Below are positions 6,150-14,232 of a stretch of 51,481 nucleotides of DNA, in pieces (within the stretch, counting starts at the first letter, position 1; every line of letters starts with the position of its first letter). The notes below the pieces were generated by a model. It was given only the letters and a program-made list of their open reading frames with translations, did not search any database and was not told the DNA's origin. The stretch comes from an archaeon (lineage in GTDB: Archaea; Nanobdellota; Nanobdellia; Woesearchaeales; GW2011-AR9), in the NCBI GenBank assembly GCA_023265925.1, contig JAHFSD010000003.1, positions 1 through 51,481 on the forward strand. Direction: 5' to 3'. The translations under genes were made by a program, and so were the position numbers.

Positions 6150-6184
6150 CATATAATTAACCACTTCAGGTGGTTAATTATATG
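6150..6184. repeat. Perfect 15-bp inverted repeat with 5-nt spacer
   Basis: catataattaaccac-ttcag-gtggttaattatatg, between the divergent permease and rps2 promoters. Confidence 0.9.
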
Positions 6185-7319: not shown

Positions 7320-8291
7320 ATGAAAAAAGTCGTGGTTATTGGTGGTGGAACCGGGAATTTTGTCGTTCTCCGTGGATTAAAGAACTTTCCCGTGGATTTG
7401 AGTGCGATCGTCTCGATGGCCGATGACGGCGGCAGCACCGGCATTCTCCGTGATGAGCTTGGTGTGCTTCCTCCCGGTGACGTGCGGCAATGTTTAGTGG
7501 CTTTATCCGATTCCAGCCGGCTGATGAGAAGCCTGATGAGTTACCGCTTTGAAAATGGCGGCTTGCAAGGACATAGTTTTGGCAATTTGCTGCTCTCGGC
7601 ACTGGAAAAAGTAACCGGCAGTTTTGAAAAGGCAGTGGAGGAAGCCGGGAAAATTCTCTCCATCAAAGGCAAAGTCATTCCGGTGACGACGCATCAAACC
7701 CGGCTGAAAATGGTCCTCAAGAACGGAAAAATGCTGGAGGGTGAGGGGCAGGTGTATGTATCACGGGAAATAGATCAAGGCTACAGCACTATCTACCTGG
7801 AACCGTTTCCCAAAGCTGACGTTCATGCTCTTGATGAAATCCGGAATGCCGACTTGATCGTGCTGGGACCGGGCGGACTCTACACCTCCTTAATTCCCAA
7901 CTTGCTGGTGGAAGGCGTCAGCCAGGCCTTACAGAAAACTCAAGCCAGGAAAGCGCTGGTGATCAATCTCATGAATAAGCACGGGCAAACGACCGGATTT
8001 CGGGCAAGTGATTACCTGCGGGAACTGCAGCGCTTTACCGGCAGGGACGTGTTTGATTTCATCATCGTGAATAACGGCAGGCCCGCAGCAGAATTGATTG
8101 AGATTTATGCTGATGAGGGAACCTTAGTCGAGAACGATCTTACCGATTCCCGCGTTATTGCTGCCGATCTGCTGGATAATCATAAAGCAGAGTATAGCAG
8201 TGCGGACGTGCTGGCCAGACATCGGGCCTTCATCCGCCATGATGCCAAAAAATTAGCCGCGGAGCTGATGGCTATTGTTGATAATCTTTGA
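7320..8291 (+). CDS. YvcK/GlmR (UPF0052, CofD-like) family protein
   Basis: VVIGGGTG, DDGGSTGILRDELGVLPPGDVR, GHSFGNL and GPGGLYTSLIPNL motifs. Confidence 0.92.
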   Translation: MKKVVVIGGGTGNFVVLRGLKNFPVDLSAIVSMADDGGSTGILRDELGVLPPGDVRQCLVALSDSSRLMRSLMSYRFENGGLQGHSFGNLLLSALEKVTGSFEKAVEEAGKILSIKGKVIPVTTHQTRLKMVLKNGKMLEGEGQVYVSREIDQGYSTIYLEPFPKADVHALDEIRNADLIVLGPGGLYTSLIPNLLVEGVSQALQKTQARKALVINLMNKHGQTTGFRASDYLRELQRFTGRDVFDFIIVNNGRPAAELIEIYADEGTLVENDLTDSRVIAADLLDNHKAEYSSADVLARHRAFIRHDAKKLAAELMAIVDNL

Positions 8292-8322
8292 TCCTTTCCG
8301 GAGGAAAGACTAAAAATTAAAA

Positions 8323-8802
8323 ATGTTAATCATTTTTGATTTGGACGGTACCTTGTATGATCGTGCCGGTCAAGTGCCGGATAATTATACTGAGCAGGAC
8401 CTTCAGCAGCTGAAACCTTTTCCTGGCGTGAAAGAATTCTTACAGTCCTTTTCCGGCACAAAAATATTGGTGACGAAGGAAACTGATCCAGGATTACAGG
8501 ATAAAAAGATTAATGCTCTGGGTATTCGCCCTTATTTCCATTCCATTTACATCTGCCATACTGATGAAGAAAAGAAAAAATCATTTCAGGAGATACAGCA
8601 ACAATTCCCCGGGGAAGAGCTGGTCGTGGTAGGCGATCGGATTGATCTGGAAGTGAAATTCGGCAAGGAGCTGGGGCTGAAGACGGTCTGGATGCGCCAA
8701 GGAAAGCATCGGGACCGCCGGCCTCAAGAGTATTGGGAAGTGCCGGATTACGAAATCTCGGAATTTTCCGAATTGGCGGAGGTGCTGCCCTCTCCACCAT
8801 GA
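8323..8802 (+). CDS. HAD-superfamily hydrolase
   Basis: Motif I IFDLDGTL and motif IV VGDRIDLEV. Confidence 0.9.
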   Translation: MLIIFDLDGTLYDRAGQVPDNYTEQDLQQLKPFPGVKEFLQSFSGTKILVTKETDPGLQDKKINALGIRPYFHSIYICHTDEEKKKSFQEIQQQFPGEELVVVGDRIDLEVKFGKELGLKTVWMRQGKHRDRRPQEYWEVPDYEISEFSELAEVLPSPP

Positions 8803-10923: not shown

Positions 10924-11175
10924 TCAAAAGGCAGACGGATACCTCTTCTTAAACTTTTCGTGCATGGACTTTTTCATTCTCCTGCCTAATTCTATTGAGA
11001 ATTCCAAGGCCTCTTTTTCACTGAGTTTGGATTTAGAGACAATTGCTTTTAAAATTTGTAATTGGGCTAATTTCTGTCGGATGGCTTCACGAGCTACTTC
11101 GGACCAGTTCATTTCCGGACACCGATCCATCTTCAATTTCATTTCCTCAGGTATGGCTAAGGTTAATGCCGGCAT
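10924..11175 (-). CDS. Small ribbon-helix-helix (CopG-like) DNA-binding protein
   Basis: MPALTLAIPEEMKLKM...NWSEVAREAI pattern; GGAGG SD before ATG 11175. Confidence 0.7.
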   Translation of the reverse strand: MPALTLAIPEEMKLKMDRCPEMNWSEVAREAIRQKLAQLQILKAIVSKSKLSEKEALEFSIELGRRMKKSMHEKFKKRYPSAF

Positions 11176-11289
11176 AGGTTCCTCCTCCGGTGATGTAAAC
11201 AATACACATAATACACAGGAAATATATAAACCTTTCGCAGGATAAAACCAAGTGGAACAAATTACCGTGCAGAATCCGTTGCAGCAACG

Positions 11290-11297
11290 TTTATAAA
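11290..11297 (+). promoter_or_regulatory. TATA box upstream of the AMP phosphorylase leader
   Basis: TTTATAAA about 35 nt upstream of the uORF ATG at 11332. Confidence 0.55.
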
Positions 11298-11331
11298 CTA
11301 AGAATATTTATTTCTTACAAAAGAGGTTACT

Positions 11332-11409
11332 ATGAGATTCCGTGTGAAAGATACAAAAAAAATTGGTGATTTTTTGGTATCTTTAACCCTGAAGGTGATG
11401 CAAAAATGA
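11332..11409 (+). other. 25-codon upstream ORF (MRFRVKDTKKIGDFLVSLTLKVMQK) overlapping the AMP phosphorylase start (ATGA), within alternative hairpins
   Basis: GAGGT SD at 11323-11327; the stop TGA at 11407-11409 overlaps ATG 11406. Confidence 0.55.
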
Positions 11410-12878
11410 AGTTCAGGGTTAAAGACATGGACATTGCCACCGGCGGAACGCTGGTAGCGATTCTGAACAAGAAAGATGCCCGCCATCTGGATCTGCATAG
11501 CGGCGATCGTATTCTGGTGAAAGATGGAAATAAGGAAGTGCCCTGCATCCTGGACATCTCGGAAAGCAAGAAGGCTGTGCCAGAAGGAAAGATCGGCCTG
11601 TTTGAAGAAGTGTTAACCCGCCTGGGCGTGCACAGCGGGAGCATCATCAACATTAAGCTGACGGGAAAGCCGGAATCCGTTGCCCATATCCGCGACAAAC
11701 TGTATGGAAAACGGCTCAGCTATCAGGAACTGTACCACATCATGGATGATATTACCCATGATCGCCTGACCGACATCGAAAAAACGTACTTTGTCGCCGC
11801 TGGCTTTGCTAACGGCTTTACCCATGAAGAAGTAGTCGATATGACCAGAGCGATGGTGCATACCGGAAAGAAATTGAAATTCCCGGGCACGGTCGTTGAC
11901 AAGCATAGTATCGGCGGCATTCCGGGCAACCGTACGACCATGATCATCGTTCCCATTCTGGCTGCTGCCGGCTTTACCATGCCTAAAACCAGTTCCCGGG
12001 CGATAACTTCCCCGGCCGGCACGGCCGATACGATGGAATGTTTAGCCAATGTGGAGCTGACCGAAGAGCAGATTCAGCGTGTCGTCCGGAAAACCGGAGC
12101 CTGCATGGTCCATGGCGGCAGCATGAGTTTAGCGCCGGCCGACGATAAAATTATTGAAGTCGAGCATCCGCTCAGCATTGATGCCGAAGGGCAGCTGTTA
12201 GCGTCGGTGATGGCCAAAAAATATTCGGTCTCGGCCAAGCATGTGCTGATTGACATTCCCATGGGCAAAAGCACTAAAGCGAATAGCTGGGCGAAGGCCA
12301 ATCATCTGAAGAAAATGTTTGAATTGATTGGGAAGAAATTGGGAATGAATATTCACGTGATTATTACCGATGGCTCTCAGCCGATTGGCTATGGCGTCGG
12401 CCCGTTACTGGAAGCGCGTGATGTTCTGGCGATATTACGAAATGATCCCCAGGCGCCACCGGACTTAAAGAAGAAGGGCCTGATGATGGCCGGGGTATTA
12501 TTAGGCATGACCGGGAAATATAAAGACGGGCAGAAGAAAGCCCGCGAAATCCTGGAAAGCGGCCAGGCCTGGAAGAAGATGAATGAAATCATTGATGCCC
12601 AAGGCCGGAAAAGACTGCCGCCCCTGGGAGAATTTTCCTATCCGGTACGCAGTGGAAAGATTGGAAGGGTGCGGGGAATTAACACTGAAATCATCGCCAA
12701 GATTGCCCGGATGGCCGGTGCACCGGATGACAAGGGCGCGGGATTACACCTTCGCAAAAAGGTGCATGATCTGACGCAGAAAGGCGATTTGCTTTATACG
12801 GTCTATGCGGAAAGCAGGTTTAAGTTAGAGCTGGCCAAGGAAATGGGGAGGCAGAATTGCGGGTATCTGGTTGGATGA
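11406..12878 (+). CDS. AMP phosphorylase (archaeal thymidine-phosphorylase family)
   Basis: DKHSIGGIPGN, KTSSRAITSPAGTADTME, SVMAKK, QPIGYGVGP and C-terminal GAPDDKGAG; N-terminal double-psi-barrel-like domain typical of AMPpase. Confidence 0.93.
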   Translation: MKFRVKDMDIATGGTLVAILNKKDARHLDLHSGDRILVKDGNKEVPCILDISESKKAVPEGKIGLFEEVLTRLGVHSGSIINIKLTGKPESVAHIRDKLYGKRLSYQELYHIMDDITHDRLTDIEKTYFVAAGFANGFTHEEVVDMTRAMVHTGKKLKFPGTVVDKHSIGGIPGNRTTMIIVPILAAAGFTMPKTSSRAITSPAGTADTMECLANVELTEEQIQRVVRKTGACMVHGGSMSLAPADDKIIEVEHPLSIDAEGQLLASVMAKKYSVSAKHVLIDIPMGKSTKANSWAKANHLKKMFELIGKKLGMNIHVIITDGSQPIGYGVGPLLEARDVLAILRNDPQAPPDLKKKGLMMAGVLLGMTGKYKDGQKKAREILESGQAWKKMNEIIDAQGRKRLPPLGEFSYPVRSGKIGRVRGINTEIIAKIARMAGAPDDKGAGLHLRKKVHDLTQKGDLLYTVYAESRFKLELAKEMGRQNCGYLVG

Positions 12879-13896: not shown

Positions 13897-14232
13897 ATGC
13901 CACGCTCTAAACTATTGCAGTATGCCTTGGACGCCATCAGGAAGCACCCGCAGGTATAGAGAACTGCGCAACTTATATCCTATTTGTGCGCAGTTCTAAT
14001 CTGGTAAACTGCGTATCAAAGTGTCAGATAAGCTACGCAGTTTACCATATTTGAAGCCCTGGCAGAATATGATAAAACCAGGAAATTGCCGAAGACCGTC
14101 TATCGGGAACGCATTAATCTGACCATTGATACCAACTTATTGCGGCAATTCAAGCAGCATGCTGCGGCGAAAGGATTGAACATGTCGCGGGTTATAGAAA
14201 AGCATATCAAGGAAGAGTTGGATCTTCAGTGA
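13897..14232 (+). pseudogene. RHH/CopG-family DNA-binding protein gene interrupted by a 93-nt insertion
   Basis: MPRSKLLQYALDAIRKHPQV, then TAG, then after 93 nt the same frame resumes FEALAEYDKTRKLPKTVYRERINLTIDTNLLRQFKQHAAAKGLNMSRVIEKHIKEELDLQ. The joined product is 80 aa. Confidence 0.75.
13955..14050. mobile_element. Twin-hairpin (REP/MITE-like) insertion flanked by a TAT direct repeat
   Basis: Stems agaactgcgca/tgcgcagttct (13960-13997) and tggtaaactgcgta/tacgcagtttacca (14002-14047); TAT at 13955-57 and 14048-50. Confidence 0.6.

Follow-up and report, generated by a model that had tools for sequence, protein, structure and literature searches.

The gene for an archaeal-type AMP/thymidine phosphorylase in the window, the 51,481-nt stretch of DNA analysed here, is preceded by a short leader that is probably a conserved cis-acting translational element, coupling synthesis of the enzyme to translation of the leader itself. 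The leader recurs in many tiny Woesearchaeales (DPANN) and, judged by comparison among genomes, seems to be an archaeal translational-coupling switch that has not been described before. A sequence-only reading of the locus had described an upstream ORF (uORF) and a bistable hairpin that together duplicate the start of the gene. We confirm that this observation is correct and far from chance.

All features of the locus lie on the + strand. Direct reading places a predicted TATA box of the leader-plus-gene transcript (TTTATAAA) at 11291-11298 and a Shine-Dalgarno (SD) sequence, AAGAGGT, at 11321-11327; AAAGAGG is conserved ahead of the uORF in most leaders. The uORF itself, MRFRVKDTKKIGDFLVSLTLKVMQK, occupies 11332-11409, with its ATG at 11332, 25 codons and a TGA at 11407-11409. 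The phosphorylase gene (490 aa, 11406-12878, assigned from profile matches) overlaps that stop codon with its ATG, as ATGA at 11406-11409, and its own SD, GGTGAT, is at 11394-11399. These positions bear out the earlier description of a 25-codon uORF that has an SD of its own and a TGA overlapping the main ATG. Codons 2-7 of the uORF (R F R V K D, 11335-11352), the start mimic, copy codons 2-7 of the gene (K F R V K D), whose product begins MKFRVKDM. The F-R-V-K-D codons are synonymous, as had been stated: the uORF has ttc cgt gtg aaa gat where the gene has ttc agg gtt aaa gac. The uORF also contains the stretch AAAGATAC.

Two hairpins connect these parts. Hairpin A (11347-11384) lies entirely within the uORF; AAAGAUAC pairs with GUAUCUUU in its basal stem, and an A-run pairs with a U-run in its apical stem. 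The 5' arm of hairpin B, also within the uORF, is an anti-start segment (11380-11393) antisense to main-gene codons 3-7, and its first 5 nt are common to hairpin A. The 3' arm is formed by those codons themselves (TTC AGG GTT AAA GA, 11412-11425). The arms are complementary at 14 of 14 positions across an 18-nt spacer, and the main SD and ATG are looped out, which agrees with the perfect 14-bp stem reported before. The reported match of 14/17 between the antisense copy and the uORF copy likewise holds, for 11338-11354 against 11377-11393. A repeat search extends the self-pairing to 11338-11361 with 11370-11393 (24 nt, 83% complementary).

The 151-nt region folds at -37.7 kcal/mol (z = -2.95). 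By itself, hairpin B has an energy of -21.0 kcal/mol and hairpin A one of -10.6 kcal/mol. The minimum free energy (MFE) structure holds hairpin A together with an 11-bp form of hairpin B, rivalry being confined to approximately UAUCUUU, and in this genome B is preferred over the A-side pairing by ~10 kcal/mol. The term 'bistable' is therefore only partly right. Alternative pairings are present, but they share only 5-8 nt, both hairpins coexist in the MFE structure and B dominates here.

Such a structure is rare in the genome. Perfect hairpins of at least 14 bp with a loop of 4-40 nt number only 23 in its 1.2 Mb and 0 in shuffled genomes. When all ORF starts were scanned for upstream ORFs with five or more of the seven N-terminal residues in common, the start-mimicking uORF proved unique to this gene. 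A second mimic candidate, at 8275/8323 of the window, overlaps the upstream gene's end and was rejected as a coincidental match, and a genome-wide habit of this organism was rejected as well, this locus being the sole clean case in the scan. No further copy of the leader segments was found in the same genome, and the idea of a trans antisense RNA was dropped. An origin from the mobile twin-hairpin insert at 13955-14048 was also discarded, as the insert has no sequence relation to the leader. Rfam gave no gathering-score match in the window except one tRNA; at E <= 1 on 11250-11500, the sole match was a spurious plant miRNA (19 bits).

Searching with a covariance model recovers the leader upstream of this gene in 27 genomes. 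The window's family accounts for 18 of them, from 13 genera and out of 113 genomes, and seven other families of the order for nine, making eight families in all. Outside the order, a 401-genome sample of the class yielded no leader match. Two hits of the model were discarded as false positives, one (G112) comprising the gene start only and the other (G187) an unrelated palindromic element in two copies. The leader-bearing records are Woesearchaeota/Nanoarchaeota MAGs from several independent isolate/assembly series. Absence from close relatives had been named as the sign of a recent duplication-inversion accident. Instead the leader is widespread, though the sole same-genus relative is without it, and on the evidence of its distribution it is not a recent accident. 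On a tree of the enzyme, leader-bearing genomes are scattered in a way that forces at least nine gains or losses, and a single origin visible as one clade was rejected. Because it has been gained or lost at least nine times and is missing from the same-genus relative, the leader is dispensable. One genome carries two tandem modules; in both, the anti-start fits the start that follows it, and ATGA occurs at all three junctions.

The TATA box of the window starts 41 nt before the uORF ATG (start to start). At least 16 of 25 leaders carry a motif, AAAC.TATATAAA, 30-40 nt ahead of the uORF, and leaderless relatives have the same motif 40-49 nt ahead of the ATG of the gene. The TATA-to-uORF spacing thus equals the TATA-to-gene spacing of leaderless relatives, which argues against a transcription start downstream of 11395. 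Such a start, which the sequence-only reading had listed as fatal to its proposal, is counter-indicated by the predicted TATA position.

Counts of frame, spacing and overlap are based on 25 complete leaders. All 25 have an open uORF frame, against 1 of 25 for each other frame, and this frame has no stop in 537 codons, against 0.09-0.11 stops per codon in the other frames. The two ATGs are 65, 68, 71, 74 or 119 nt apart in 23 leaders, always 2 mod 3 in these 23. Indels within the uORF are multiples of three, and a 45-nt in-frame insertion in the leader of one genome still keeps the spacing rule. Stop and start codons overlap in 19 leaders, as TTGA in one. The overlap is 10 nt in one further leader, and in five the stop is 2-6 nt upstream of the main start, a distance still in the working range for coupling. 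A purine-rich SD-like motif stands 5-10 nt ahead of the main start in nearly all leaders. To judge by its frame, the leader of 20-25 codons is probably translated. Since the main gene retains its own SD, some independent initiation is possible.

The pairing between anti-start and gene start is also conserved. In an alignment fitted to the structural model, which inflates pairing counts, hairpin B is paired in 88.7% of cells, with compensatory changes at 7 of its 14 pairs. It scores 0.428 for covariation; shuffles score 0.201 +/- 0.017 (0/500), and sliding the partner gives no more than 0.136. A two-hairpin model (R2; 27 rows), fitted in the same way and so with counts inflated likewise, has double changes in 9 of 14 hairpin A pairs and in 6 of 8 inner B pairs, and scores 0.403 vs 0.172. 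The 3' arm of hairpin B covers approximately +5 to +25 of the main ORF in the 25 leaders, and the loop measures 10-28 nt. Its predicted pairing probability is above 0.5 in 18 of them. In the other seven, the predicted ensemble is without hairpin B (P < 0.11), and the helix between the upstream copy (segment 1) and the anti-start (segment 2) prevails over that between the anti-start and the gene start (segment 3). Across species, the two states differ by a predicted ddG of between -14.7 and +7.9 kcal/mol (mean -1.4), with a helix overlap of 5-8 nt. Positions +7..+20 of the main ORF have a predicted unpaired fraction of 0.19 in leaders vs 0.44 in leaderless relatives. Transcription attenuation at the T-run of hairpin A was considered and rejected, the T-run not being conserved in other lineages. 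Across eight families, the reading frame of the uORF, the overlap of its stop with the main start and the helix between anti-start and start are conserved and covary, and this comparative evidence strongly supports the 'coupling switch' of the sequence-only reading.

We propose the following course of events. The mRNA is predicted to start ~10 nt ahead of the uORF. Hairpin B is predicted to mask the main start region, with codons 3-7 paired to the anti-start and the SD and AUG held in a closed loop. Ribosomes would load at the uORF, which appears to retain the gene's SD, its first seven codons and the ancestral distance to the promoter. Those translating it would cross the anti-start and melt hairpin B, and termination at the UGA overlapping the AUG (AUGA) would be followed by reinitiation on the enzyme ORF, so that enzyme synthesis would depend on leader translation. 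The upstream start copy AAAGAUAC would pair with the 5' part of the anti-start to form the base of hairpin A. In doing so, hairpin A may retain the anti-start behind a passing ribosome and tune the re-forming of B.

Strict coupling at ATGA overlaps has been experimentally demonstrated in Haloferax volcanii and E. coli (PMC6728339), and models of coupling by RNA unfolding and reinitiation have been reviewed (PMC12548453). As in the ATGA-coupled pairs (PMC6728339, PMC10666635), the two ORFs are co-directional with a 4-nt (-4) overlap, here at 11406-11409, the downstream SD lies within the upstream ORF and the overlap is conserved in relatives. Unlike in those pairs, the upstream partner is a leader of 20-25 codons and not a normal gene, and it copies the first seven codons of the downstream gene and carries a dedicated anti-start segment. 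RNA-unfolding coupling, known from phage MS2 coat-lysis, phage f1 VII-IX and E. coli rpmI-rplT (PMC12548453), shares with the proposed switch a downstream start that is closed by pairing and opened by upstream translation. An inhibitory helix between the main start region and a uORF-internal sequence is present here too, and is preserved by compensatory change. It differs from the known cases in that the +5..+25 coding region is masked with the SD and AUG in the loop, and in that the start mimic is a third segment competing for the masking strand. The leader is moreover archaeal, and its module is iterable in tandem.

A pure coupling model leaves the retention of uORF codons 2-7 at the amino-acid level without explanation. 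The uORF N-terminus, M-K-F/L-x-V-K-D, is preserved in this sense across saturated synonymous sites. Compared with the main gene of the same genome, 69 uORF codons are identical, 55 synonymous and 26 non-synonymous, and among uORF codons that differ between genomes 58% are synonymous vs a neutral expectation of 18%. The enzyme residue is matched at Lys6 in 25 of 25, at Asp7 in 21 and at residue 3 (F or L) in 24, in four genomes by way of different Leu codons. Arg and Leu are retained through first-position synonymous changes (CGT/AGG, TTG/CTT, CTC/TTG, CTA/TTA). Judged from these codon comparisons, the uORF N-terminus is under amino-acid-level selection. Recent gene conversion was rejected as the cause of the mimicry, third positions agreeing at 3.08 of 6 with the own gene and 2.71 with the genes of other genomes. 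RNA pairing was rejected too, as the outer pairs between segments 1 and 2 are often broken and do not covary. It is possible, if on balance doubtful, that the leader peptide is functional through its mimicry of the enzyme, either as a nascent chain that senses within the ribosome or as a free amphipathic beta-strand docking on the N-terminal domain of the AMP phosphorylase (AMPpase).

In leader-peptide attenuators such as ermC and cat, and in the sensors SpeFL and TnaC, a short translated leader with alternative helices controls a downstream start. The locus shares with these systems its short leader, its alternative leader-internal helices and a controlled downstream start. It could be a signal-sensing attenuator, in which a metabolite- or charging-dependent stall on the conserved N-terminal part would shift the balance between the segment 1:2 and segment 2:3 pairings and switch enzyme translation. 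Three segments with overlapping alternative pairings and a cross-species ddG centred near zero fit such a device, and selection on the N-terminal heptapeptide would be expected of a nascent-chain sensor. We nevertheless find it rather unlikely. The helices here overlap only partly and mostly coexist, and the SD and AUG lie in a loop, outside the stem, only the early coding region being paired. Known arrest peptides have their critical residues near the stall site; this peptide mimics the regulated protein, its C-terminal half changes frame between lineages, and conserved rare or diagnostic codons were not seen in the leader. The leader stop also overlaps the main start, a conserved ATGA arrangement that a pure stalling switch does not need.

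The same mimicry could mean that the uORF is a small-protein gene. Its product would be an amphipathic beta-strand resembling beta-1 of the enzyme and acting on AMPpase, for example by capping or modulating assembly mediated by the N-terminal domain, and the ATGA coupling would fix the stoichiometry. Replacements in the peptide are conservative only (K/R, F/L, V/I, D/E), its third positions are no closer to the own gene than to the genes of other genomes, residue 3 is matched even where the Leu codons differ, and the motif MK.K[IV] is shared as far as the Thermococcus enzyme. Overlapping coupled gene pairs, furthermore, often encode subunits of a complex (PMC10666635). We consider this improbable all the same, given that only ~7-10 residues are conserved and that the RNA hairpins determine the remainder of the peptide, whose frame differs from lineage to lineage. 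A small protein is compatible with the anti-start hairpin but offers no explanation for it.

The retained Lys6 and Asp7 also recall programmed translational bypass, in which ribosomes would take off at one of these leader codons and resume at its counterpart in the main ORF, the seven residues of the leader becoming the N-terminus of the enzyme. The T4 gene 60 bypass has the same layout of repeated codons on either side of a structured gap, the first copy being accompanied by a hairpin and the second preceded by an SD-like motif. Here, too, a hairpin starts where take-off would occur and an SD-like motif lies ahead of the place of landing, and bypass would account for mimicry at the amino-acid level. 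It is very unlikely, since codon 8 is Thr or Asn and not a stop, the gap is an open, conserved frame running on to the ATGA overlap, for which bypass has no need, the second copy comes with a separate SD and AUG, and the 3' landing site is inside a stable stem. Just as improbable is a DNA-level element, with the inverted repeat, downstream of the promoter, forming a cruciform or serving as an operator for a dimeric transcription factor. A perfect 14-bp repeat, palindrome-like and close to a promoter, invites that thought, but its arms covary freely with synonymous changes and hold no fixed recognition sequence, its spacer varies from 10 to 28 nt, and conservation of the uORF frame is irrelevant to an operator. 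That the leader is a neutral, functionless relic of a duplication-inversion of the 5' end of the gene is hardly credible, for all its resemblance to a direct plus an inverted copy of the start, its ready scarless loss by direct-repeat recombination, its patchy distribution and its tandem reduplication, in view of the frame kept in 25 of 25 leaders with indels in threes, the compensatory changes in both helices, the selection on amino acids despite saturated synonymous sites and the presence of the leader in eight families.

The enzyme passes PRK04350 (589 bits) and TIGR02645 (553.6 bits, cut-off 434.6). Its score against the equivalog model TIGR03327 (AMP_phos), 530.3 bits, is under the cut-off of 535. 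The best PDB match is 4GA5/4GA6, the Thermococcus AMPpase (E = 2e-111). No match to RuBisCO (PF00016) or to ribose-1,5-bisphosphate isomerase (PF01008) was found in the same genome, which is 86% complete. Because of the sub-cut-off AMP phosphorylase score and the missing RuBisCO and isomerase matches in a genome of that completeness, the earlier suggestion that the leader controls nucleotide catabolism is uncertain.

Conserved leader-peptide and uORF switches are textbook material in bacteria. To our knowledge, they are almost undocumented in archaea, and we know of none in DPANN. Literature searches turned up no described AMPpase uORF or archaeal leader of this kind. Comparative genomics alone yields 27 instances, marked by a conserved frame, covarying helices and selection on the peptide, and these are a well-defined candidate for the first family of translational-coupling leaders in archaea. 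The system is unusual in three respects, all open to experiment in Haloferax, Thermococcus or cell-free systems: the N-terminus is duplicated at the amino-acid level, modules are lost without a scar or reduplicated in tandem, and two helices contest one pentamer encoding Lys-Asp. If the peptide does act by mimicry, the module would amount to a self-referential device for feedback, a tandem-stackable 'protein-mimic leader peptide', and would represent a class of translational control undescribed in any domain of life. For archaea with genomes of ~1.2 Mb that appear to lack the usual downstream pathway enzymes, a regulated nucleotide/nucleoside phosphorylase is likely to be important.

The AMP/thymidine phosphorylase gene of the window begins at an ATG at 11406 on the forward strand and encodes a 490-aa product with the N-terminus MKFRVKDM. 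Upstream on the same strand, an SD (AAGAGGT, 11321-11327, read in 11101-11640) precedes a 25-codon uORF, MRFRVKDTKKIGDFLVSLTLKVMQK (11332-11409), whose TGA overlaps the main ATG. Sequence reading and the ORF list thus recover all the elements listed by the sequence-only reading. The perfect 14-bp stem that it had described as looping out the SD and ATG, hairpin B, is returned by a repeat search (11380-11393 with 11412-11425), with GGTGAT and the main ATG inside its 18-nt spacer. The same search finds a second inverted repeat of 24 nt, 83% complementary (11338-11361 with 11370-11393). The 151-nt leader region folds at -37.7 kcal/mol (z = -2.95), and the isolated hairpins are predicted at -21.0 kcal/mol for B and -10.6 for A (11347-11384, inside the uORF). 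The 1.2-Mb genome holds just 23 perfect hairpins of at least 14 bp, and shuffled genomes none; another of these rare hairpins lies at 6150-6184. An eight-A run within the uORF (ACAAAAAAAATT, 11355-11362) forms the 5' side of the hairpin A apical stem. Ribosomes could slip on it, but other lineages do not conserve the run. A genome-wide scan found no start-mimicking uORF at any other gene of this genome, nor does the genome hold further copies of the leader segments. A 12-codon ORF at 8275-8345 (TTG LIIFDPFRRKD) was considered as a second mimic. It overlaps the end of the upstream gene and has 5 of 7 residues in common with the next gene start (M LIIFDLDG, HAD-type), but was judged a chance match since it lacks an inverted repeat.

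The main product belongs to the archaeal AMP/thymidine-phosphorylase family, with PRK04350 and TIGR02645 above cut-off and the AMP_phos equivalog below it (530.3 vs 535). The closest solved structure, Thermococcus AMPpase 4GA5, carries the same motif in its N-terminus (MKAKIRILDM). No match to RuBisCO (PF00016) or to the ribose-1,5-bisphosphate isomerase/IF-2B family (PF01008) was found in the genome, a MAG of 57 contigs that is 86% complete. The phosphorylase may act in the salvage of bases or nucleosides instead of in the AMP-RuBisCO pathway. The divergent neighbour (10924-11202, minus strand) encodes a 92-aa RHH/VapB-like protein, a weak NCBIfam match. A second TATA-like motif (AAATATATAAAC, 11219-11233), some 25 nt away from the start codon of this gene, suggests a leaderless divergent transcript.

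Alignment of orthologue upstream regions shows the same leader in other genera. Using a covariance model built from five leaders, we found it in 18 genuine genomes of the 113 in the family, representing 13 of 58 genera; one further match, to a gene start only, was discarded. Among 401 sampled genomes of the order, eight more, from seven further families, have it. Sampling the class, again with 401 genomes, added one leader genome and gave no match outside the order. The conservation for which the sequence-only reading had looked to relatives therefore holds across genera and families, though the same-genus relative (83% protein identity) is without the leader. This closest relative (L002, from genome G001) has a longer 5' region in which a small hairpin (CCCAG...CTGGG), different from the leader hairpins, sits between TATA box and SD, some 55 nt upstream of the enzyme ATG. 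Model matches on two contigs of another genome, G187 (L058 and L061, 1501-1607, minus strand), were rejected. They mark an unrelated multi-stem palindromic element of about 105 nt in at least two copies, with hairpin-A-like sequence (AAAGATACTGAAAAATGC...GCATTTTTGGTATCT) and not adjacent to the phosphorylase gene; downstream of one copy are an acidic small ORF and ribA.

The uORF frame is uninterrupted between its own ATG and the main start in all 25 complete leaders, compared with 1 of 25 for each of the other two frames. It contains no stop in 537 codons; the other frames have 0.09-0.11 per codon. Of the 25 leaders, 23 have an ATG-to-ATG distance of 65, 68, 71, 74 or 119 nt, so indels occur in threes, a 45-nt insertion included. 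The uORF stop overlaps the main start in 19 of 25 (ATGA, once TTGA) and by 10 nt in one, while five uORFs end 2-6 nt upstream. Taken together, the comparative evidence suggests that the uORF is translated. The 45-nt (15-codon) in-frame insertion, in L048/L066 of genome G050, separates hairpin A from the anti-start and brings two extra small hairpins; that uORF is open over 40 codons and retains its ATGA end.

The first uORF codons mimic those of the enzyme. Within genomes, codons 2-7 of the two ORFs are identical in 69 cases, synonymous in 55 and non-synonymous in 26, with 18 of the last at codon 4, which is variable. The three codon positions account for 21/19/73 differences, and 18% of random single changes are expected to be synonymous. 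First-position synonymous changes also occur (CGT/AGG for Arg; TTG/CTT, CTC/TTG and CTA/TTA for Leu). Between genomes, the synonymous share of differing codons is 58% for the uORF and 66% for the enzyme. At third positions the uORF is barely more like its own gene than other genomes' genes (3.08 vs 2.71 of 6), so the duplication is old and is not being homogenised. Amino-acid-level selection maintains the heptapeptide M-[KR]-[FL]-x-[VI]-K-[DE] across saturated synonymous sites. uORF residue 3 (F or L) equals enzyme residue 3 in 24 of 25 genomes, and the remainder of the peptide follows the RNA, changing frame between lineages.

Both helices covary, a check that the sequence-only reading had proposed. 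Hairpin B, in which the anti-start pairs with enzyme codons 3-7, has 88.7% paired cells over 24 sequences, and both sides have changed in 7 of 14 pairs; it scores 0.428 for covariation, shuffles give 0.201 +/- 0.017 (0/500), and slid partners reach at most 0.136. A second model of both hairpins, realigned on 27 rows, gives double changes in 9 of 14 pairs of hairpin A and 6 of 8 of inner B, with an overall score of 0.403 vs 0.172, all from alignments fitted to the model. The hairpin B 3' arm always covers main-ORF positions from about +5 to +25, and the 10-28-nt loop of this hairpin contains the SD and AUG. The predicted unpaired fraction of +7 to +20 is 0.19 in leaders vs 0.44 in leaderless relatives. 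In per-sequence folds, hairpin A apical stems are quite different among species (for example A-run/U-run, GAAGAAC/GUUCUUC, AGCAAAC/GUUUGU, AGUAAGC/GCUUACU, UGAAAAU/AUUUUCA). The two hairpins have only UCUUU or UAUCUUU in common; its pairing partner can be AAAGA(UA) from either copy of the start, where both ORFs encode Lys-Asp. The long helix between uORF start copy and anti-start that the sequence-only reading had proposed lacks covariation in its outer part, yet folding predicts it as the ground state for 7 of 25 species. ddG(B-A) ranges from -14.7 to +7.9 kcal/mol among species (mean -1.4), with B winning by about 10 in the window. Of the alternative pairings in the sequence-only reading, competition for the anti-start thus stands, but a clean two-state switch does not.

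In the window a TATA motif precedes the uORF ATG by 41 nt, and at least 16 of 25 leaders have it at a similar distance; in leaderless relatives it lies 40-49 nt ahead of the gene's ATG. The uORF thus starts at the position of the ancestral gene start. The leader is scattered over a maximum-likelihood tree of 49 enzymes and occurs in both deep clades; 17 changes are needed under parsimony, and at least 9 are forced by well-supported branches. The two direct start copies could recombine and so delete the leader without a scar, in keeping with an old element lost independently many times. One leader, L052 (genome G294, JAHWHD010000087, 1441-1800, minus strand), carries two modules in tandem, with three ATGA overlaps joining a permease (membrane-protein) gene to uORF1, uORF1 to uORF2 and uORF2 to the enzyme. 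Both uORFs begin MKFKVK, and each anti-start matches its own downstream start (CCTTTGACTTTGA vs TTCAAAGTCAAAG). By alignment, L054 (G326) and L059 (G481) have degenerate extra start-mimic and anti-start copies (CTCAAAATCAAAGACAAT ... AAGCCTTTGATTTTG) 70 nt upstream of the uORF, which look like relics of further tandem duplication. L059 has an additional fragment resembling enzyme codons 6-11.

Comparison across genomes indicates that the leader is a real, conserved regulatory element. Its observation by the sequence-only reading is confirmed, and its interpretation as a translational attenuator or coupling switch partly supported. Transcription would start about 10 nt ahead of the uORF, and hairpin B would block direct initiation on the enzyme ORF. 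Ribosomes translating the leader would melt hairpin B, terminate on AUGA and reinitiate on the enzyme ORF, and the base of hairpin A would re-form behind them, holding part of the anti-start. ATGA-type overlaps show strict termination-reinitiation in Haloferax and E. coli (PMC6728339), and coupling by RNA unfolding has been reviewed (PMC12548453). Five rivals to this coupling model were weighed: a stalling-dependent attenuator, a functional micro-protein with stoichiometric coupling, a neutral relic, bypass during translation, and an operator in the DNA. Coupling does not account for the amino-acid-level selection on the heptapeptide. Searches of Rfam and the literature returned no description of the element. 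By analogy, the leader would work like known coupling and unmasking devices, but it differs from them in being archaeal, in pairing the regulated gene with a dedicated upstream leader that mimics its product, in a third segment that competes for the masking strand, and in being an iterable module.
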